Position numbers and translations under genes: made by a program
Notes under the pieces: generated by a model
Databases searched by the model: none
The model's input: only the letters and a program-made list of their open reading frames with translations
What the model was told of the DNA's origin: nothing
IMG/VR virus record: IMGVR_UViG_3300012172_000013
Coordinates: 1-29,899 of that record
Strand: one strand, 5' to 3'
Origin: a virus
Taxonomy: Duplodnaviria > Caudoviricetes
Length of the DNA stretch: 29,899 nucleotides
Part shown: one piece after another, positions 3,975 through 29,899 of the stretch
Position numbering within the stretch: position 1 is the stretch's first letter
Layout of the letters: each line of letters opens with the position of its first letter

Positions 3975-5105
3975 TTAATCGTCTGCCTTTCTAGTGATAG
4001 TTCGCCATAGCCTGGTGAAAAATCCTTGCTGTTCTACTGGCTTAGCCTTGGGTTGTTGACTCGAAATCAGGTAATCGCTAACGCGGTTCGCGGGTTCGAA
4101 TCCCGCCCTCTCCGCCATAACTTCTGGTAACCCCTGCTGATTTTCAGTAGCCATGCCCACTTGTGGGATAGCCACTGTAAGTTCTTCGCTATCCTTGTCC
4201 AAGTATGCCTCGACTTGCTTGACCGCGTTCCTAACACTTTCTATTGAATGCTGATTATAATTATTATAAATCGTGTCCGTCTTATGCCCTGTGATCTTCT
4301 TGCCAGTCTCTTTATCTACTCCGGCGCGATTCAGGTTAGTAGTGCAGCTCCTACGGAGATTGTGGAAAAAATGCTCTTTGTTTTCGATCTTCGCTAGATC
4401 GCATACAGTAGAACAGATTCGCCGGATACTCCGTACTGGCTTACCAGACCTATGAAACAACAACCCATCAGGACTAGGATGAACTAGCCTACGCTCAATC
4501 ATATGCCAAACCTTGCCCTCAAGCGGATATATCTTAGGGCGTTTATTCTTATGCTTGCTCCGTGGTAGGACCGCTAGCTTCTCTTGTGGCTTTATCCAGT
4601 CCTTGTGTAACCCAAGGCACTCACGCAAGCGCCAGCCTGAGTAATACGCGAACAGGACTATGTCTGCCGTAACTTCGCCGTCATAGTTTCGGCCAGCTCC
4701 TAGCTGGCGGCAAGCATCCTGGAACTTTAAAAACTCATCATGCTCATAGTGGCCTTCCCTAGGCTCTGGCTCGGGATATAGTTTAATAACTGGCTTACGT
4801 TCGACTAACTCATCTTCTATGCCTAGCGTGAAAGCCCGCTTGAGTATTGCCAGCTCTCGATTGACTGTCACTTCGCTAGCCCCCTCTTTCTTGCGTGTGC
4901 TTTTATAATCCTCAACATGGCTCTTACGGACATGCTCGGCGATTCTCGCTCCAAGCTTTGGCGCTAGCTGGTTCCGTATGTACATGTCAACCAAGGGCTT
5001 GCTACGCTTGCCGTTTATCTCATAGTCGCGCTGCACTAGCTTTAACAAGTCTGATACTCTGGCTCCAGGGGCTTTCATCTTAGCTCCACATTCTCCGCAG
5101 TGCAT
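3975..5105 (-). CDS. int: Tyrosine integrase
   Basis: Core-binding domain (TVNRELAILKRAF); catalytic R (SGWRLRE), K (KHKNK), HxxR (HNLRR), H (TGHK), Y (YNNYN). Confidence 0.95.
   Translation of the reverse strand: MHCGECGAKMKAPGARVSDLLKLVQRDYEINGKRSKPLVDMYIRNQLAPKLGARIAEHVRKSHVEDYKSTRKKEGASEVTVNRELAILKRAFTLGIEDELVERKPVIKLYPEPEPREGHYEHDEFLKFQDACRQLGAGRNYDGEVTADIVLFAYYSGWRLRECLGLHKDWIKPQEKLAVLPRSKHKNKRPKIYPLEGKVWHMIERRLVHPSPDGLLFHRSGKPVRSIRRICSTVCDLAKIENKEHFFHNLRRSCTTNLNRAGVDKETGKKITGHKTDTIYNNYNQHSIESVRNAVKQVEAYLDKDSEELTVAIPQVGMATENQQGLPEVMAERAGFEPANRVSDYLISSQQPKAKPVEQQGFFTRLWRTITRKADD
4057..4117 (+). other. attP core: 3' portion of a tRNA-Ser(CGA) gene
   Basis: Anticodon loop CTCGAAA (CGA 4062-4064), long variable arm AATCGC/GCGGTT, T-arm GCGGG-TTCGAAT-CCCGC, acceptor strand CCTCTCC-G-CCA; no 5' half (GGAGAGG, D-arm) upstream. 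Confidence 0.9.
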
Positions 5106-12084: not shown

Positions 12085-12490
12085 CGGGGGTAAGTTCAAG
12101 AAATCAGATCATGGGCAGGATATACTTGATTCGGATGGTAATGTAACTGCCCGTATTTGCATAGATTGCCATGAAGCTAAGCCCCTAGACCAGTACCAGA
12201 TACAGGTAGGTGGTAAGAAAGCTAGAGACTGTAAGGTCTGTAGGCGGGCTAAGTTTGTTAGGGGCATGGAAGCCGCTAAGCAAGATGGCGTAGAAGTAGA
12301 TAAAGCTTGGGTAATTAAAGAAGCTAAGAAGCTCTACCTGGAAACTAATAAGTATAACGATAAGATCAAGCTACTAGATACTATCTCTAGGAATCTAGGA
12401 GAAAAGAATCCCGGGCTGACAGACGATGCTAAGCTAGTCAGAGACCTGATCGCTAGTAAGAAGAAAGCACAAGAAATTAAGGGCCGGTAG
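12077..12490 (+). CDS. terS: Probable terminase small subunit with N-terminal Zn finger
   Basis: CIDC...CKVC, then VDKAWVIKE...DKIKLLDTISRNLG resembling TerS oligomerisation helices; position at the start of the packaging module. Confidence 0.65.
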   Translation: MSSGGKFKKSDHGQDILDSDGNVTARICIDCHEAKPLDQYQIQVGGKKARDCKVCRRAKFVRGMEAAKQDGVEVDKAWVIKEAKKLYLETNKYNDKIKLLDTISRNLGEKNPGLTDDAKLVRDLIASKKKAQEIKGR

Positions 12491-12554
12491 TGTAGTGCGA
12501 GCACACCTGGTTTGCACCCAGTTAGCGTGGGTTGGAATCCCACCTGGTCCACCA
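12481..12554 (+). tRNA. tRNA-Ala(TGC) with non-canonical D/T loops
   Basis: Acceptor GGGCCGG/CTGGTCC with G3:U70, A73, encoded CCA; anticodon loop TTTGCAC; T-arm GTGGG-TTGGAAT-CCCAC. Confidence 0.85.
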
Positions 12555-12588
12555 AGAGTTGACACGGCTTCGCCGGGTCCACCAAAAT

Positions 12589-13425
12589 ATGGCAAACGAT
12601 CTAAAACCCGAGAATGACGCAGAACTAGGCGATGGTTTCCAGATCATCCGCCTAGGGTTCTGGGCCGATCCTGATAAAGATGAGAAGTGGGCTAACAGAG
12701 TCAGGGCAGAGTACCCCACTGAAGACTTTGAGCGTGAGTTTGAGCTTAAGCCCGTTGGCCTAAAAGATGTACGCCCCGTATTCGGGGATTATAAAAAGAA
12801 CTTCCACGAGAGCGATACGCTCATATGGCGACCTAGCGCAGGTCGGTTAATACTACGCGGCTGGGACTTCGGGAAGGTTCACCCAGCCGTAGAATTCTTA
12901 CAAGTTATCGGGCTGGAGAAGAACTTCATTGACGAGATAGCACCAGACAATATTATGGAAGAACAATTTGTCCAAATGGTGCTAGCTCATTCTAGCCAGA
13001 ACTTCCGTGGTTGTACGTTTGAAGACTGGGTAGATATTACTGGCCGGAATGAGGATCGTTGGGGCAACTCTAGCCTTAAGACCCTTAGGAGCTATGGCAT
13101 TACCCCGAGAGGTAAAGACCAGGAAGTAGAAGATGGAATTCTTCAAATGTGTAAGGAATTGGTTCTTACTACCAATGGTAGACCTTACATTATGGTTAAT
13201 CCCAAGAAGTGCCCTAGACTTGCTGCTAGTATGCGCGGTGGCTACAAGCGTAACAAGAAAGGCGAGATCATCAAAGATGGTATCAATGACCACTACGTGG
13301 ATGCTGCTCGCTACCCTATTATGGGCTGTACGTTCACGCGGGGTAAAAGCTGGGATGTAGTCCGCCAGAAGATGAAGAATCAGTACGGTAAATTTCCTAA
13401 GCAGGGGAGAGATATACGAAGATAG
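12589..13425 (+). CDS. terL: Terminase large subunit, C-terminal piece (ATPase lid + RNase H-like nuclease)
   Basis: ADPDKDEKW...FEREFE (lid), RGWDFG, WVDITG, DHYVDAARY; ATG 12589 preferred because the track start lies inside the tRNA. Confidence 0.88.
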   Translation: MANDLKPENDAELGDGFQIIRLGFWADPDKDEKWANRVRAEYPTEDFEREFELKPVGLKDVRPVFGDYKKNFHESDTLIWRPSAGRLILRGWDFGKVHPAVEFLQVIGLEKNFIDEIAPDNIMEEQFVQMVLAHSSQNFRGCTFEDWVDITGRNEDRWGNSSLKTLRSYGITPRGKDQEVEDGILQMCKELVLTTNGRPYIMVNPKKCPRLAASMRGGYKRNKKGEIIKDGINDHYVDAARYPIMGCTFTRGKSWDVVRQKMKNQYGKFPKQGRDIRR

Positions 13426-13664
13426 AACTAGGAGATAGGGTTATAGTTGACCCTCATCATCACGCGCGGGGAAGCCAGCATGGTACTGTCGTAGATGCTA
13501 GCGAAGAAGACCTAGACATACTTAACCCGCCCCCGAATAGGTACTGTATTAAGTTTGATAAAGACGGGACAGGTGTCAGGCTTAGGTATTTATTTCTGGG
13601 CGAGAGGGATTTCACAGTGGAGCAAAATGATCTTTACACGTCCAGACCAAGTAAAACCGAATAG
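13416..13664 (+). CDS. Small SH3/KOW-like protein lacking a canonical start codon (ACG)
   Basis: Open frame (T)KIELGDRVIVD...GTVVD...YCIKFD fills the gap; GGGGAG 6 nt before ACG; in-frame TAA at 13398. Confidence 0.5.
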   Translation, partial: TKIELGDRVIVDPHHHARGSQHGTVVDASEEDLDILNPPPNRYCIKFDKDGTGVRLRYLFLGERDFTVEQNDLYTSRPSKTE

Positions 13665-14574
13665 CCAACTCTATATTGTCACAAGTCTCTTTAACCCAAT
13701 CCGCTGGAAGTCACGATGGAAATTATATCTTGACTTTGCACGCCATGTTCAAGAGTCAGAAGGCGAGCTGTTCACTGCTGAGGTATCGTTCAGGAAACGT
13801 GAACATGTATTACCAGTGAACGACCATAACCTCCGGCTTACAACTAAGCATGAGTTCTGGCTTAAAGAGAATGCACTTAACCTAGCTATACAAAGACTCC
13901 CTGATGACTGGGAGTATGTTGCATGGGTAGATGCGGACGTTCAGTTTGTTCGAGAAGACTGGTGTAACGAGACAGTTCACCAGCTTCAGCATTACGACAT
14001 GGTGCAGATGTTTTCTGAGGCTGCTGACTTAGACTCGCAGCATCAATTGCATCAGAAGCATAAAGGCTTCGCGTGGTGCTATCACAATAACATTCCTATC
14101 TGCCAGGCAGATAATAACTACTACTACCCGCCTGCGAAGAAGGGCTTGGTTTATTGGCATCCTGGTTTCGCTTGGGCGATTAGGAGAGATGCTTTCGATA
14201 AGCTTGGTGGGTTGATTGACTTCTCCGTATTTGGCTCCGCTGATTGGTTGATGGCGAGAGCACTGATAGACAAGCTTCCTGAAGCTCTCTATCTCGGCGA
14301 GCATGGGCTACGCTGGTTGGAGATATGGAATGAGAGAGCGAAGCTACTCAATCATAATATTGGTTATGTTGATGGGTTGCTCCTTCATAACTGGCATGGT
14401 CCTAAAGCTGATCGCAAGTATAAACAGAGAGCATTAGACTTTCATGCTACTAACTTCAATCCTGAAGTAGACTTGAAAAGAGACTGGCAAGGGCTCTGGC
14501 AGCTAACAAATAATAACTTGCTCTTGCGGGATGCTCTACGTAACTACTTCAGGGGCCGCAACGAGGATGCGTAA
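13627..14574 (+). CDS. GT-A fold glycosyltransferase
   Basis: KENALNLA, AWVDADV (DxD), HPGFAWA, GSAD, HNWHG; GGAG RBS before ATG 13627. Confidence 0.82.
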   Translation: MIFTRPDQVKPNSQLYIVTSLFNPIRWKSRWKLYLDFARHVQESEGELFTAEVSFRKREHVLPVNDHNLRLTTKHEFWLKENALNLAIQRLPDDWEYVAWVDADVQFVREDWCNETVHQLQHYDMVQMFSEAADLDSQHQLHQKHKGFAWCYHNNIPICQADNNYYYPPAKKGLVYWHPGFAWAIRRDAFDKLGGLIDFSVFGSADWLMARALIDKLPEALYLGEHGLRWLEIWNERAKLLNHNIGYVDGLLLHNWHGPKADRKYKQRALDFHATNFNPEVDLKRDWQGLWQLTNNNLLLRDALRNYFRGRNEDA

Positions 14575-14666: not shown

Positions 14667-15368
14667 ATGAGTCAACCAGAATTCACAAGACGAGAAGCAT
14701 TAGAGGCTACAGCAGATCAACTGCTATGGGCTGCTGAAGATATACTTTTCTTCTCTAACTTTGTTAAGACGCATGATAGCCATGCTAAGGGCGATAGAAT
14801 ACAGCCCTTCCCTGTTGATAAGAAGTATATCAGTAAGCTTCTCCTAGCTGGGGGTAAGCTTCCTAGGTTAGCAGTTTATAAGTCCAGGCAGATGCTAGTA
14901 ACCTGGATTATGTGCATTGTGTGTATATGGGAAGCTTTATTCAAACCCGGCAGCGTCATCGCGCTAATCTCTCTCAAAGAGGAAGACGCCGGAAAACTTA
15001 TCGGGCGGATGAAGGTGATATACGATCACCTACCAGAGCACTGGAAGCTAGCTCTGCCTCCTGTCAAGTTCTACAGAGGGAAGAAGGGTATTATACTGCG
15101 GATGATCGTAGAGCATCCGCTAAGTGAAGGCCCACCTAGCACGATAGAGGCGTTCCCTCAAAACGGTAATCCTGGGCGCGGTGAAACTCTCTCACTAGTT
15201 TACTGGGATGAAGTAGGTGAGTGCGATGATAGAGAGTGTAGGAATATGTACGCTTCACTTCGTCCTACACTAGAGAACGGTGGGCGCTTAATTATGTCCA
15301 GCACTCCTCCGCGTGACCCTGAGCATTTCTGGGAGCATTTTTGTACTAACCAATATTTCGGAGATTAA
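14667..15368 (+). CDS. terL: Terminase large subunit, N-terminal ATPase piece
   Basis: VYKSRQMLVTW (Walker A variant), GRGETL, VYWDEV (Walker B), IMSSTP (coupling motif); stops 19 aa later. Confidence 0.9.
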   Translation: MSQPEFTRREALEATADQLLWAAEDILFFSNFVKTHDSHAKGDRIQPFPVDKKYISKLLLAGGKLPRLAVYKSRQMLVTWIMCIVCIWEALFKPGSVIALISLKEEDAGKLIGRMKVIYDHLPEHWKLALPPVKFYRGKKGIILRMIVEHPLSEGPPSTIEAFPQNGNPGRGETLSLVYWDEVGECDDRECRNMYASLRPTLENGGRLIMSSTPPRDPEHFWEHFCTNQYFGD

Positions 15369-21915: not shown

Positions 21916-22971
21916 GTGGGCGCATTCAGCAAGCATTTTGTTAAGCTTATTAACCAAGATGGGCCAAGCAGTGGGGTAGAGGTATTAATACCGCTTGGTG
22001 ATAGCTTGGATGTTGGTGATGACGGGCAGCTTAATGTCGTCGGAACTGTTGGCGGTGGACCCCAGGGTGAGACAGGCCCGGCAGGGCCACAGGGCGAGAC
22101 CGGACCCCAAGGTATTCAAGGTATTCCCGGTAACGATGGTGCAGAGGGTCCGCAGGGTATCCCCGGCGCTCCCGGGAACGATGGGGCAGACGGGGACCAG
22201 GGGATTCAAGGCATCCAAGGCGCCCCTGGTAATGATGGCGCCCCCGGAGCTGACGGCGCGCCGGGAGCTGATGGTGCGGATGGTGCCGATGGTGCGCCAG
22301 GCGAGCAGGGTATCCAAGGTATCCAGGGGATACAGGGCATACAAGGGGAGCAGGGTGACCCTGGCACGCCAGCGGACCTATCAGCAGTCTACCCCGTAGG
22401 TTCAATCTATCTTTCTGTTCTCTCAACAAATCCTAACACTCTATTTGGTTTTGGTACATGGGCAGCTTTTGCAGCAGGCAAGGTCTTAGTTGGCCTTAAC
22501 GGCGCCGACGCTGACTTTGATACAGCAGAAGAAACAGGCGGAGCTAAGACAGCCTCTTCAGCAGGTACTATCGGTAATACTGGCTCTGAGTCTGCTCATA
22601 CTCACGGTGTTACATCAAATGTAACCGTAGCGGACCACAGCAGCCACACGCATGTTTACTCTGAAGTTCCGAACCATGTCCATGTTCAAAACCTACCAAC
22701 TTCACAGACAGGCGGCCAAAGTAGTGGCACCCGGGATACATCTACGACCGGGTCTGGTGCAGACGCCCTGTCAACAGCTAATCCAACAGGCGGAGTCGCG
22801 AGCGGTACGACTCAAGGTCCGGGAGCAACGATAACCCATGCCCCCACCAACAACGCGGTGACAAGCGCAGCCGGCTCTTCCCACAACCATACTGGTGGAA
22901 CATTTACAGGTAGCGCGACGAGTGTAGTACAGCCGTATATCGTAGTCTATATGTGGAAACGAACATCGTAG
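21916..22971 (+). CDS. Collagen-like fibre protein with gp10/collar-like C-terminal domain
   Basis: Long G-X-Y run, YPVGSIY, FGFGTW, HxH metal motifs, VQPYIVVYMWKRT. Confidence 0.88.
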   Translation: MGAFSKHFVKLINQDGPSSGVEVLIPLGDSLDVGDDGQLNVVGTVGGGPQGETGPAGPQGETGPQGIQGIPGNDGAEGPQGIPGAPGNDGADGDQGIQGIQGAPGNDGAPGADGAPGADGADGADGAPGEQGIQGIQGIQGIQGEQGDPGTPADLSAVYPVGSIYLSVLSTNPNTLFGFGTWAAFAAGKVLVGLNGADADFDTAEETGGAKTASSAGTIGNTGSESAHTHGVTSNVTVADHSSHTHVYSEVPNHVHVQNLPTSQTGGQSSGTRDTSTTGSGADALSTANPTGGVASGTTQGPGATITHAPTNNAVTSAAGSSHNHTGGTFTGSATSVVQPYIVVYMWKRTS

Positions 22972-25260: not shown

Positions 25261-25599
25261 ATGGCCCTACGCAACCGTAAGCAAGAAGAGACTAGCAAGC
25301 TCCTTGGTGTAAACCAAGTAGATGAAGAGTCTGACCTAGAGCTAGGTGCTTTTACTCTTCTACAGAACTGGATTCAAGCTGAGATATACTCCGTTAAGAA
25401 GAAGCGGGGAGTAACAACTCTAGCGGCTAGGTTCTTAATAACAGAAGATGAGATACAGCTTATCACAGAAGACGGGCGTCCTATTATCATAGAAGAGGGC
25501 ACAGTAACCATCCCGGATACCGTTCTACTTATCTCCACAGAAGATAGTGCACCAATCCTTATCGAAACCGGAATATCATTGACTACCGAAGGGGTCTAA
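25261..25599 (+). CDS. Nozzle-N-terminal-like segment fused to LITEDG repeats
   Basis: LLGVNQVD...LQNWI...KKKRG then LITEDE, LITEDG, ISTEDS, LIETG. Confidence 0.7.
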   Translation: MALRNRKQEETSKLLGVNQVDEESDLELGAFTLLQNWIQAEIYSVKKKRGVTTLAARFLITEDEIQLITEDGRPIIIEEGTVTIPDTVLLISTEDSAPILIETGISLTTEGV

Positions 25600-26442
25600 A
25601 TGCCAGCAGAAATTAAAGTAACAGAATTACCAGCGGGTACCGTACCTGATGATACTGACCTAGTAATGGTCGTGCAGGACGTGGCAACTACTCCTGTAAG
25701 TAAGAAGATGACACGCTCTAACTTCCTAGGTTCTAGCGCATATACAGACGAGAAGGCGCAGGATGCAGTAGGAACGATACTTAGTGATGCTGGTGATATT
25801 GATTTTGATTATGTCGATGCCACACCTTCTATCTCGGCGGCTATCAAGACGGCTTCTGTATCCTACGCTAAGATGCAGGACGTTAGTGGGGCTTCTAAGC
25901 TCCTAGGGCGTGGTAGTGCAGGCGGGGCTGGTGATGTTGAAGAGATAGCGTTAGGTAGTGGGCTTAGTATGTCCGGTACTACGCTAAGTGGCACTGTGTC
26001 TGCATATACCGATGAGCAGGCCCAAGATGCAGTAGGAACTATCCTAAGTGATGCGGGGGATATAGACTTTGACTATGCGGATGCTACCCCAGCTATCACT
26101 GCTACAGTCAAGAGTCCACTTACCATCGCTAAGATCATACTAACCCAAGGTGCAGACGTAGCTGTTAACGCACAAACTCTATCTGGCACGCTGACGTTGA
26201 CTACATCTTCCAAGCGCTATCAGTCGCTTGACCCAGACGGCTCCGCCCGTAACGTCGATCTGCCCGCTGAAGCTGAAGGGCTAGCATTCTTCATAGTTAA
26301 TAGAGGCAACGGAGCGGAAGTCATCACAGTTCGTAATGATGCAGCCGGAACCGTAGACACCATCGACAACGATGAGGGTCTTAGTGTGATCTGCGATGGC
26401 ACAAGATGGATTTCAGCTAAAGCCACCCTAGTAATTGTCTAG
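25600..26442 (+). CDS. Tail fibre protein with internal duplication
   Basis: IKVTELPA N-terminal motif; two copies of SAYTDExAQDAVGTILSDAGDIDFDYxDATP; KLLGR...GDVEEIALGSGLSMSGTTL. Confidence 0.8.
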   Translation: MPAEIKVTELPAGTVPDDTDLVMVVQDVATTPVSKKMTRSNFLGSSAYTDEKAQDAVGTILSDAGDIDFDYVDATPSISAAIKTASVSYAKMQDVSGASKLLGRGSAGGAGDVEEIALGSGLSMSGTTLSGTVSAYTDEQAQDAVGTILSDAGDIDFDYADATPAITATVKSPLTIAKIILTQGADVAVNAQTLSGTLTLTTSSKRYQSLDPDGSARNVDLPAEAEGLAFFIVNRGNGAEVITVRNDAAGTVDTIDNDEGLSVICDGTRWISAKATLVIV

Positions 26443-26443
26443 T

Positions 26444-27289
26444 ATGAAATTCTCTAAACAAAACGGCTTGTGGTTGCCAAAACCGCTACGAAACCAGCGT
26501 GGGATGGTCGCACCCGGGATTATGCCGATGACTGGTCCACAAGGGGCACCACCAAGCCCCCCACTGACTGGCCTGTTTGTCTGGCTGAAAACTCCCATCG
26601 CCGGCCTGGTTGATAATGACGTGTTTACGGACTTTGGCGTTGGTGCCGATATCCAATGGCCTGACTCAAGCGGTAATGGTTGGGATGCGGCCCATGATGC
26701 CAATGTTACTAGCCCGGTCTATCGAACGACTAGCGTTACAATCAATGGCCTTCCGGTTGTTAGCTTTAATGCAGCGATACCCCATGGAATGCACACCGAT
26801 AACATTCGGTCTGTAGCTGACGGCCTGACTGAAGCAAGTATCTACATAGTTGGGCGGATTAACAACGATCCCCCTGCTTCACAAGCTAAAGCTGGCCTAA
26901 TCACCCTTAATAATGTTGGTGACTTCCTTACGGAATTTCCGGGTGTTCTTAGTAGCGACGAGATTCTAAGCTCCACATTCCGATCCGCCCGCGTCAATAT
27001 CGGCGACCCAGCAACATCGTTAGCAAGCCCCTTTTACTATGGTGTGCTGAGCCAAAGCGCTGATTACAAAGTACGCCTGAACGGTTCTGAGATATTCTCT
27101 ACAGGTACGAACACCTTTGCTACAACAGACGCAGGCGTCCCTAGTTATCTGATTGGCCATTCCTTTTCAGGGACTTTTAACTTCTGGTATGACGGTGTTA
27201 TCGCGGAGATACTTATCTACGACCACTTCCTAGATGCCGGAGAGATTACCGACATAGAGACTTACTTAGCTGACAGATTCGCGATCTAA
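26444..27289 (+). CDS. LamG/ConA-like lectin-fold receptor-binding protein
   Basis: GLFVWL, WPDSSGNG, INGLPVVSF, DGVIAEILIYD, IETYLADRF. Confidence 0.78.
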   Translation: MKFSKQNGLWLPKPLRNQRGMVAPGIMPMTGPQGAPPSPPLTGLFVWLKTPIAGLVDNDVFTDFGVGADIQWPDSSGNGWDAAHDANVTSPVYRTTSVTINGLPVVSFNAAIPHGMHTDNIRSVADGLTEASIYIVGRINNDPPASQAKAGLITLNNVGDFLTEFPGVLSSDEILSSTFRSARVNIGDPATSLASPFYYGVLSQSADYKVRLNGSEIFSTGTNTFATTDAGVPSYLIGHSFSGTFNFWYDGVIAEILIYDHFLDAGEITDIETYLADRFAI

Positions 27290-27293
27290 TACT

Positions 27294-27824
27294 ATGCTCC
27301 GTAACCGCCAAGACGTAGAAGAGAAGAAGCTAGTAGGCGTCAACCGTGTAGCAGACCCGACTAAGCTGAAGCTTGGTACGTTTAGTGAGCTAGCTAACTG
27401 GATACAAGCTAAGCGATATAAGATTAAGAAGAAGCGTGGGCCTGAGTTGCTTAGTGGTGATGAGGATATTACTATACCCAGCCCCTGTACCATAGAAATC
27501 TCCTGCGCAGACTCTACTGCACGTGGACAACAGTCGTTGTTTCTTGAGACCCGATTCGATCAACAAAGCTCATTCCCGCCTAATGGGAATCTCAGAACCA
27601 GCTGGGGTTATATAACCGCAGCAGAAGAAGTTTGGGCTTTAATCGGGGAGGCGAGTTGTGCTGGCGGAAACATGACCTATCAATCTACATGCTGCCAGCT
27701 CAATCGTTGGCAAACTCCCCTGAGCGTTGTACACCCGGATTTGATCGAGCCTAACCCACTCAATCCGGCTATCAACACACTGACGGGTACTTCTGATGAG
27801 CCAATTTACGGGTACGTTTTCTAG
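27294..27824 (+). CDS. Second nozzle-N-terminal-like segment fused to a Cys-containing domain
   Basis: LVGVNRVA...LANWI...KKKRG, clearly paralogous to the 25261 ORF. Confidence 0.7.
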   Translation: MLRNRQDVEEKKLVGVNRVADPTKLKLGTFSELANWIQAKRYKIKKKRGPELLSGDEDITIPSPCTIEISCADSTARGQQSLFLETRFDQQSSFPPNGNLRTSWGYITAAEEVWALIGEASCAGGNMTYQSTCCQLNRWQTPLSVVHPDLIEPNPLNPAINTLTGTSDEPIYGYVF

Positions 27825-27826
27825 CC

Positions 27827-28762
27827 ATGCCTTCAACTAATGGAATAAATTTCTACTATCCTGACAGCGACACGCATGTTCTCTATGCGTATGGTACAAA
27901 TTTGTTTCCAACTTTTTCAAGCGGTGAAGGAATCTTCGCTAAACGCGATACTAAGTTTTATCTCTATAGTCACAACTCCGGTGTTGCTGAGCCTAATAAG
28001 CGCGTTCTGGAATTTGACGCCGTAAGTGGTGTCCAGCTTAATGAGTGGGATTCGATAGCGGATTTTGATATCGGGCAAATGGCGGCGACTGCTGACTTTT
28101 TATACTGCCTAGGCACGACCCAGGGTGATGCGAACGGTCAAGCACTCAAAAGGATTGATCGTGCAACAGGTTTAGTCACGGGCACATTCATGCTTGATAA
28201 TATCAGCCCCAACGCGCTTGGGCTCGTAAGCGACGACCTGATTTATGTTGTATGTAACGGAACTCCGGTAGCGCTTTACTATATCGAAAATTTTACAGAT
28301 TTGGTTTTTGTAGGCTACACACCAGGGCAAGGACTCAACCCGTTTGGCTTTGCTACGGGCGCTTTTGTTAACGGCGCTATGTATTTCGGTAGCAGCGGGT
28401 TCGGTGGATTCAGCGTCGATATTTTCAGAATCACCGTCGAGTGCCCAGACGGCGGTGCAGTGATCGCCTCGGTCAGTCGAGATGCTAGTTCAGTTGCAGC
28501 GGGTAGCCCGATCAACGTGAGTTGGGCCGATGTTTTAACACCTGATGCAGGTGATACAATCCAATTGCACAGTGCACCAGCTGGCGATGATTTGGGGTTC
28601 ACTGGGGCTTCGCTGATTGACTCTCAACCAACGGATGGACTCGGAACCAGCTCCATAGTTTATACAATTCCTGGGGGCACGCCAGCAGGAACTTACGTTT
28701 TTACATACGCCGCGCTAGATTCTATTTATGTGGCGATAAGCCCTACTTTCACAGTGACCTGA
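27827..28762 (+). CDS. Putative receptor-binding protein (beta-propeller-like + Ig-like C-terminus)
   Basis: Beta-rich repeats (RIDRATG); C-terminal INVSW...TIPGGTPAGTYVFTY...SPTFTVT. Confidence 0.65.
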   Translation: MPSTNGINFYYPDSDTHVLYAYGTNLFPTFSSGEGIFAKRDTKFYLYSHNSGVAEPNKRVLEFDAVSGVQLNEWDSIADFDIGQMAATADFLYCLGTTQGDANGQALKRIDRATGLVTGTFMLDNISPNALGLVSDDLIYVVCNGTPVALYYIENFTDLVFVGYTPGQGLNPFGFATGAFVNGAMYFGSSGFGGFSVDIFRITVECPDGGAVIASVSRDASSVAAGSPINVSWADVLTPDAGDTIQLHSAPAGDDLGFTGASLIDSQPTDGLGTSSIVYTIPGGTPAGTYVFTYAALDSIYVAISPTFTVT

Positions 28763-29112
28763 TGCCTCAGCCCCGATTGTTTCCAAGAACCAACGGTACA
28801 CCAGAAGCCCCTGCTATACAAAGAACGGCGAGAGCTAAGCAGCAGGCAATAGCACGGGCTAATACTAGAGCTAAACTGCTGGTCTATGCTACAGAGTTAG
28901 GCGTACCCCTCCCTACGCTCCTAATGGCTGGTATATGGCTAAGCAAGAAGAAATGCCCATACTGTGAGCTAGGTAATCGTGTCCTTCGCCAGATTAAGCT
29001 ATTAGGTAAAGAGAAAGCCATAGCGGTCCTTACGCAGATACTAGAAGCAAAATCAAGAAAAGACTACGCTACTCTAATTCAGATCAGAGAAGAGCTAAAT
29101 GCCGGCAATTAA
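28762..29112 (+). CDS. Hypothetical basic protein (CPYC)
   Basis: ORF track; TGATG overlap. Confidence 0.7.
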   Translation: MPQPRLFPRTNGTPEAPAIQRTARAKQQAIARANTRAKLLVYATELGVPLPTLLMAGIWLSKKKCPYCELGNRVLRQIKLLGKEKAIAVLTQILEAKSRKDYATLIQIREELNAGN

Positions 29113-29899
29113 GCACATACACACCTATAGGCGGCCTGGGGAAGTAGACCTACTACTCTCGTGGCAGACCCGTACAGATGATACAGATGGGTTATTCCTA
29201 TGGAATGGCACAGGCTGGACTCTCATATGGGAGCTAGAAGGCACCGACCTAATTTACGATTCTGTTACCTGGAAGAGCAAGGTATTCTGGTGTGACGGCA
29301 AGCACCATATCTGGTGGTACGATGCGGACTTTGATCTTATCTGTGAAGTTGAAGAATCACCGCCTGTCCAGTACCTAATAGTCTTCCAAGAGCGCCTTGT
29401 CGGTGCAGGGGATGCTAGGACCAAGGAAGAGATAGAAGCTGCTAGCCTAGTATGGCCTGCTGACTCCAACAGAGACCGCGTGCTATGGTCCGAAGCCCTA
29501 GACTTCGAGCGCTGGGCGCCTAATAACTTTATCGACGCCCAGACCGGCAACGGTGAGACTATTAGCGGACTAGGAGTTAACTCCATCACGTCCTCAGACC
29601 GGGGTGCTCAGAGCCAGCTCGTAGTCTTCAAGCCTAGCTCGGTACTTATCAACGATGGTGTGCTCGGCGCTGCTGAGCAGAGACTAAACATCGTCAGTGA
29701 AGTTATAGGCTGCCCGGGCTATCATAGCATCGTCAATACCCCCTTCGGACTCATGTTCGGTGCTCGTGAGACCGTGTGCTTGATCGATACGAACGCTAAA
29801 GAACCTAATCAAGTTGGTTTCTTCATCAACCCTGATATACGGAAGACCCGCAACGACTTTAGCTTACAACGCTGGCAGGCTGCGATATTACACGATAAC
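29099..29899 (+). CDS. Tail nozzle / DNA-stabilisation protein (P22 gp10/T7 gp12-like beta-propeller), lacking its usual N-terminal segment; runs off right edge
   Basis: Not in ORF track; hand translation MPAIKHIHTYRRPG...FQERLVGAG...RVLWSEALDFERW...GETISGL...LVVFKPSS...IGCPGYHSIV. Confidence 0.8.
   Translation, partial: MPAIKHIHTYRRPGEVDLLLSWQTRTDDTDGLFLWNGTGWTLIWELEGTDLIYDSVTWKSKVFWCDGKHHIWWYDADFDLICEVEESPPVQYLIVFQERLVGAGDARTKEEIEAASLVWPADSNRDRVLWSEALDFERWAPNNFIDAQTGNGETISGLGVNSITSSDRGAQSQLVVFKPSSVLINDGVLGAAEQRLNIVSEVIGCPGYHSIVNTPFGLMFGARETVCLIDTNAKEPNQVGFFINPDIRKTRNDFSLQRWQAAILHDN

Follow-up and report, generated by a model that had tools for sequence, protein, structure and literature searches.

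A truncated podophage nozzle gene and two upstream paralogues that carry its putative N-terminal segment

Genes A and B share an N-terminal segment

The IMG/VR virus record IMGVR_UViG_3300012172_000013 (29,899 nt; hereafter the window, which is the entire assembly of its record) covers most of the genome of a temperate-looking podophage. Near its end, on the plus strand, lie two genes, here named A and B, and a gene at 29099 whose product has the predicted fold of a podophage nozzle, or tail hub. The genes around them are listed in Table 1. We describe here the segment common to A and B, the nozzle chain that starts without such a segment, and the possibility that A and B complete the nozzle in trans.

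The products of A and B aligned by BLASTP over residues 3-56 and 2-55, respectively, with 28/54 identities (52%, E value 2e-17), and no likeness was found by BLASTP outside these 54 N-terminal residues. At the DNA level the two segments are identical at 94 of 159 positions. After the segment, A runs into LITEDE/LITEDG-type repeats and is followed by a fibre-like gene (25600) and a LamG-like gene (26444). B contains 5 Cys in its 176 residues, and the next gene downstream (27827) was modelled as propeller plus immunoglobulin (Ig)-like domain. The initial annotation, made from the letters alone, had described two open reading frames (ORFs) that share about 55 residues and then diverge, the first into LITEDG repeats before fibre and LamG genes and the second into a Cys-containing domain before a propeller/Ig protein. 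This arrangement was recovered in full; the LamG-like gene matches PHROG 10356, and its Pfam match stayed below the cut-off.

A search of 1.84 billion representatives with the segment gave 73 hits, of which 71 were kept; P0085 and P0087 were left out (repetitive, non-N-terminal matches; E 4e-6 and 4e-4). In all 71 proteins, which are 42 to 743 aa long, the segment is N-terminal, and wherever gene context is visible it lies solely upstream of the truncated nozzle. None of the 73 hits contains the nozzle body (best E 0.5). Eleven positions are invariant across all 22 A and B segments.

Table 1. Genes of the tail locus at the end of the window.
Feature	Length	Position	Strand	Assignment or remark
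Head-to-tail adaptor	217 aa	24064..24717	+	Pfam SU10_adaptor PF24175, E 5e-11
Accessory tail gene	180 aa	24717..25259	+	PHROG 9851 tail fibre, E 7e-5, residues 141-179
Putative plug A	112 aa	25261..25599	+	Putative detached nozzle N-terminal segment (25261-25422), LITEDG-type repeats
Fibre-like protein	280 aa	25600..26442	+	DUF5907, E 6e-8; starts with a KVTELP-type motif
LamG/concanavalin-like protein	281 aa	26444..27289	+	Laminin_G_3 PF13385, E 0.007 (below cut-off); PHROG 10356, E 1e-10
Putative plug B	176 aa	27294..27824	+	Segment (27294-27452), Cys linker, first part of beta-propeller
Rest of B propeller and Ig-like domain	311 aa	27827..28762	+	Fused to B in L011 and L020
Helical CxxC (CPYC) protein	116 aa	28762..29112	+	No known family; directly before the nozzle
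Nozzle/tail hub without N-terminal platform segment	461 aa in L001	29099..29899 (window end)	+	Assigned by fold

The nozzle chain starts after the platform segment

The nozzle ORF is cut by the window end. It is complete in locus L001, which has 0 mismatches to the window over 4,639 nt and extends beyond its end. The N-terminus of the protein reads MPAIKHIHTYRR. No match was found with Pfam, PHROG or PDB sequences. An AlphaFold2 model built from 16 sequences (mean predicted local distance difference test score, pLDDT, 79.7; predicted template modelling score, pTM, 0.74) shows a beta-propeller followed by a C-terminal beta-sandwich platform, as in podophage nozzles and tail hubs. Foldseek placed podophage nozzles at ranks 1-15 with this model (Pa223, E 1e-14). 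By its modelled fold the protein is a podophage nozzle, and its gene stands in a tail module, with SU10_portal, major head protein and SU10_adaptor genes upstream.

In VIA-align comparisons, residue 1 of the model coincides with residue 55 of Pa223 gp59 (Z 22.7, root-mean-square deviation 7.3, 395 aligned) and with residue 56 of P22 gp10 (Z 22.6, deviation 6.5, 379 aligned). The corresponding residues are 56 in Sf6 gp8, 54 in VP1, 53 in Pan3 and 58-59 in SU10, and residue 68 in the crAss muzzle, and the alignment reaches the C-terminus of every solved nozzle compared. Thus, as the initial annotation had supposed, the chain starts past the N-terminal segment, at residue 53-59 of the six solved podophage nozzles. 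Structural alignment and 56 relatives both place the N-terminal platform segment of about 45-55 residues outside the nozzle chain, and in the structural alignment the missing length equals that of the segment in A and B. In T7 gp12 the first 45 residues give 3 of the 9 strands of the adaptor-binding platform, according to the available text (PMC6702177), and in Pa223 residues 2-46 are described as pairing with residues 403-512 (10.1101/2025.06.11.659172).

Each of the 56 close nozzles (40-100% identity) either is partial or has its start no more than about 25 residues from the first propeller strand, and the segment profile found no match in any of them. A sequencing error behind the split was rejected, since these relatives share the start point and L001 is free of mismatches.

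The segment resembles the N-termini of intact nozzles

Three intact outgroup nozzles of 649-848 aa (L033, L034 and P0131) were found by the nozzle body alone. The body matched L033 and L034 with E 5e-3 and 7e-3, and hhalign gave E 3.5e-10 for L033. A segment profile was built from 70 sequences; the partial protein P0088 was left out of the enriched profile. This profile scored best at residues 10, 9 and 11 of L033, L034 and P0131, respectively (z 5.7, 6.7 and 5.0). Among the 20,373 windows from six-frame translation of these two loci, the sites in L034 and L033 ranked first and second. Scores were 15.4-32.0 for the three intact nozzles versus at most 11.3 for the 56 truncated ones. Aligned with the three intact N-termini by hhalign, the profile gave E 2.9e-6 at a probability of 88, and hmmsearch returned L034 with E 4e-5, the other two being weak or absent. 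The homology of the segment in A and B to the N-termini of intact nozzles is supported by these profile comparisons.

Two old copies per nozzle gene

Thirty-three locus records were examined for copies of the segment and for the nozzle. Two copies and one nozzle gene were present in 21 of them. One record has B only; its contig begins 2,010 nt 5' of B, and a near twin has A 2,164 nt 5' of B. The other 11 are without copies, but none of them reaches further than 1,186 nt upstream of the nozzle; the distance from B to the nozzle in other loci is 1,143-2,393 nt, and L014 (1,186 nt) is borderline. The 21 records stand for 11 distinct loci, whose nozzles share 48-98% identity, and L038, a contig that ends before the nozzle, is a twelfth. 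A survey of relatives for cassette number had been suggested, and its answer is uniform: each of the 12 distinct loci has exactly two copies, A then B, and never three. In the 11 loci with the nozzle in view, two paralogous partners accompany one nozzle gene.

Both A and B are under purifying selection (pN, nonsynonymous, 0.05-0.26 versus pS, synonymous, 0.27-0.96; 10 of 10 pairwise comparisons). In the tree of the segments 2 changes suffice to explain the A/B label, versus 7.5 with shuffled labels; A and B of one genome are never sisters, and the subgroups of each broadly parallel the nozzle tree. The copies cluster by type, so the duplication appears to be old, and a recent duplication within a genome was not favoured by the tree or by topology tests. 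The two types also differ in charge. The net charge is +7 to +12 in B versus 0 to +6 in A, B being the more basic in 11/11 loci, and most A copies have an acidic loop where most B copies have a basic patch before KKRG.

Domains carried by A and B

The part that follows the segment (the cargo) differs between A and B and between loci. B is extended in all 12 distinct loci (total 176-521 aa), with varying domains. L011 and L020 each have one protein of 484 aa whose second half aligns with the 27827 protein of the window; the B propeller, split over two genes in the window (27294-28762), is a single ORF in those two loci. A sequencing error at this break is unlikely, since P0025, 47% identical to the B of L011, stops at the same place. 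P0028 and P0042 carry propeller, Ig and a LamG-like tail on B. Structure comparison matched the B propeller to generic propellers only.

A is a bare peptide of 67-79 aa in 6 of the 12 loci (L013, L016, L017, L018, L029 and L038). It bears short repeats in the window, L002, L011 and L028, FN3 plus LamG in L019 and L020, and FN3 in P0051 (E 4e-4). LamG was found in L002 with E 2.5e-7, and the LamG-like 26444 protein shares 33-40% identity with the LamG that L019 and L020 have fused to A. The structure-atlas neighbours of the fibre-like 25600 protein are viral hypothetical proteins. Of 11 loci, three (the window, L002 and L011, all one clade) have a gene that starts with a K(I/V)(S/T)ELP motif after the A repeats; the other 8 lack this motif. 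The ELP motif of the fibre-like protein may possibly dock on the LITEDG-type repeats of A (window 25420-25680). Inside the fibre-like gene, a 112-nt direct repeat (78% identical, spacing 264) lies at window 25738-26113; L011 has one unit fewer.

Window and L011 have nozzles 98% and adaptors 96% identical, but their B cargo is only 41-45% identical. With L020 the window shares 64-69% identity in the B cargo and only 58% in the nozzle. By sequence comparison, then, cargo domains are exchanged between relatives. Such exchange of cargo against a conserved body is typical of host-recognition modules. With their adhesin-type folds and mosaic exchange, the cargo domains are candidate receptor-binding modules. 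The initial annotation saw two receptor-binding cassettes here. Two different plugs are indeed conserved and some lineages have two cargos; for the six loci with a bare A the term does not hold.

The 116-aa CxxC gene between cassette B and the nozzle, absent from that annotation's list, has no significant match to a known family, and a structure-atlas search gave no usable match; the best PDB match is glutaredoxin-like and weak (E 0.24). Both Cys are invariant in 14 aligned proteins. The CxxC motif is present in 36/36 homologues, as CPYC or CPFC in 31 of them. Of 69 segment proteins, 45 also have a Cys 14-19 residues past the KRG motif. As a guess, the CxxC protein forms disulphides. At the position of this gene before the nozzle, L016 has a different, 62-aa CxxC ORF.

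Completion of the nozzle in trans and its alternatives

The reading we prefer, with a probability of about three in four, is that the nozzle gene was split after about residue 55, that its N-terminal piece is now encoded twice, and that A or B completes each subunit in trans. Tails would then carry both plugs together with their fused domains. The most likely course of events begins with the insertion of a cargo domain into the loop that joins the platform segment to the first propeller strand; a break of the gene behind the cargo would have come next, and then the duplication of the gene for segment plus cargo. The segment would dock non-covalently and supply the strands missing from the platform sandwich. 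In an AlphaFold-type model of the fused B of L011, pLDDT is below 50 for most of residues 1-66 and the propeller and Ig-like domains fold; such disorder of the segment in B alone is what a peptide whose folding depends on a partner should show.

Each nozzle body probably has one vacancy. With the same invariant residues in both plugs, the six slots would be divided between A and B, and one slot per subunit filled from two conserved plugs would give a mixed stoichiometry. Display may fall mainly to B, with A serving either as a second plug for display or as a bare spacer. Half of the loci keep a bare A, so what is conserved seems to be the need for two different plugs rather than for two receptors. 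For the order of the plugs we tentatively prefer regular 3+3 alternation, favoured by the exact copy number and by the less basic A versus the more basic B. Still more tentative is the full picture of six truncated bodies with alternating A and B, in which C6 symmetry would be lowered to C3, three copies each of two swappable appendages would be displayed, and the CxxC protein would form the cargo disulphides. Random mixing of A and B in the slots seems rather unlikely.

Several results weigh against completion in trans by two old plugs. The nozzle models at a pLDDT of 79.7 without the segment, so the need for the segment is not evident from the model. Homology to intact nozzles was tested on three outgroup nozzles, and single-sequence matches of the segment are weak for two of them (E 0.059 and 0.17; the third, E 1.8e-4). 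The initial annotation expected the segment to align with nozzle families; it does so with the intact outgroup N-termini, and sequence searches of the PDB, Pfam and PHROGs gave no match. As to the age of the copies, a single clade of A was not rejected (p value of the approximately unbiased test, p-AU, 0.29) and also not shown, and duplication within a lineage was rejected for L019/L020 (p 0.005) and not for window/L011 (p 0.06). The charge contrast is seen among related phages, is small in L019/L020, and does not amount to 11 independent observations.

Among other explanations, both copies might sit on every subunit (6 A plus 6 B), one in the platform slot and the other at a second site on the nozzle or on the 12-fold adaptor. 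The constant number of two copies, the type-specific residues of A and B and the 2:1 contact of adaptor to nozzle described for T7 and Sf6 in the available texts would suit this arrangement. We nevertheless consider it quite unlikely: all 22 segments have the same 11 invariant residues, as for one kind of slot, and the nozzle has no second missing stretch of such size (model 1-449 versus Pa223 55-511).

An assembly role for A, as a placeholder or chaperone that is replaced by B, or the presence of A and B on separate types of virion, would account for the loci in which A is bare. Such a role is improbable, because A carries FN3 plus LamG in L019 and L020 and FN3 in P0051, which suits display on the particle. 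For separate virions there is also no switch signal, with promoter- and terminator-like sites at chance level. The claim that no DNA inversion is needed was upheld: neither long or invertible repeats nor an intron signal were found.

Covalent rejoining of A or B to the nozzle body, by recombination, splicing or ribosomal bypass, is highly improbable, even though A, B and the nozzle stand in order on one strand of a genome with a tyrosine integrase. No Rfam intron or other RNA was found in four loci apart from one tRNA, no long repeat joins the segment ends with the nozzle start, and no fused form occurs among the 73 hits; in 11/11 loci the nozzle begins at a start of its own, preceded by a purine-rich stretch, and its N-terminal extensions are variable. 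Least probable of all is that the segment is now a generic tail anchor outside the nozzle and the truncated nozzle works alone, for although the nozzle models well by itself and the segment is a distant homologue of intact N-termini, what the nozzle lacks is as long as the segment, the segment is solely N-terminal and, where context is seen, upstream of this truncated nozzle, and the corresponding strands belong to the platform barrel in T7 and Pa223 in the published descriptions available.

Genome setting

The minus strand of the window encodes DNA polymerase, primase and integrase (a tyrosine integrase at 3975-5105). The plus strand encodes terminase pieces, an SU10-type portal, a major capsid protein and an SU10-type adaptor, in that order. 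The large terminase is in two ORFs of reversed order, PHROG 2 positions 429-608 coming first and 278-415 second, with a family-2 glycosyltransferase-like gene between the two pieces (ORFs 12532-13425, 13555-14574 and 14667-15368, plus strand). A tRNA-Ala(TGC) lies at 12481-12554 on the plus strand, just 5' of the first piece. A collagen-repeat fibre gene with a T4 Gp10_C-type tip is located at 21916-22971 (plus strand); L003 is without it here. The 180-aa accessory tail gene is upstream of A in several relatives too.

Downstream of the nozzle in L001 are a GNAT gene and then Gly/Ala-rich genes, which we infer to be ejection-like. The GNAT acetyltransferase-like gene (L001 11397-11945, plus strand; PHROG 1249, E 2e-12) directly follows the nozzle and is kept in relatives. 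No relative was found in 185,579 prokaryote genomes of GTDB (0/90 and 0/58 candidate stretches), and the GenBank phage set gave no close isolate.

Comparison with known nozzles

In single-chain nozzles (P22 gp10, Sf6 gp8, Pa223 gp59, T7 gp12, SU10, VP1 and Pan3) the fold is likewise a propeller with a C-terminal platform, and the gene likewise follows the adaptor and precedes ejection-protein-like genes. Their platform is built from the N-terminal 45 or so residues together with the C-terminus, as far as the available texts describe it (PMC6702177, PMC9728967, 10.1101/2025.06.11.659172). Here, in contrast, the platform segment would be on separate genes, identity is 8-13%, and no family profile matches.

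Split nozzles with appendages were published in 2026 (PMC13730344; bioRxiv 10.64898/2026.02.16.706137). In Pseudomonas phage A1002 the nozzle-rope gp39 and nozzle-base gp42 complement each other in trans with strands of platform and propeller (PMC13730344). As here, one ancestral nozzle is distributed over two genes and the detached part carries the appendages. Unlike here, A1002 keeps the N-terminal platform strands on the main body and detaches the C-terminal part, with one partner in six plus six copies, whereas in our locus only the segment of about 55 aa is detached and two paralogues serve one nozzle gene. In Xanthomonas phage PhiXacm4-11, gp30 and gp31 together make one nozzle fold and direct extra domains outward (10.64898/2026.02.16.706137); that split is near the middle, between two large chains that form a fixed C6 assembly of the gp30:gp31 heterodimer x6, and the available text describes no duplicated piece.

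The locus thus has in common with split nozzles that complementary parts of one nozzle fold are on separate neighbouring genes, and it departs from their single complementing partner per nozzle body, two partners being present here. A search of the full-text literature, with subscription journals and supplements outside its coverage, found no publication on a duplicated nozzle fragment or a hetero-hexameric nozzle. From the comparative sequence evidence the locus is real and conserved, and its duplicated N-terminal plug appears to be new among split nozzles. The segment family, missed entirely by Pfam and PHROGs, hereby receives a name, and a 55-aa plug that tolerates about 12 to 690 residues of cargo (71 proteins) would be a natural display anchor. 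The solved podophage nozzles compared consist of six identical chains or six identical heterodimers. If the proposed completion in trans is true, the sharing of one slot by two old paralogous plugs would be a new means of setting how many appendages, and of which kind, a tail carries, and the symmetry of the tail would be broken without DNA rearrangement.

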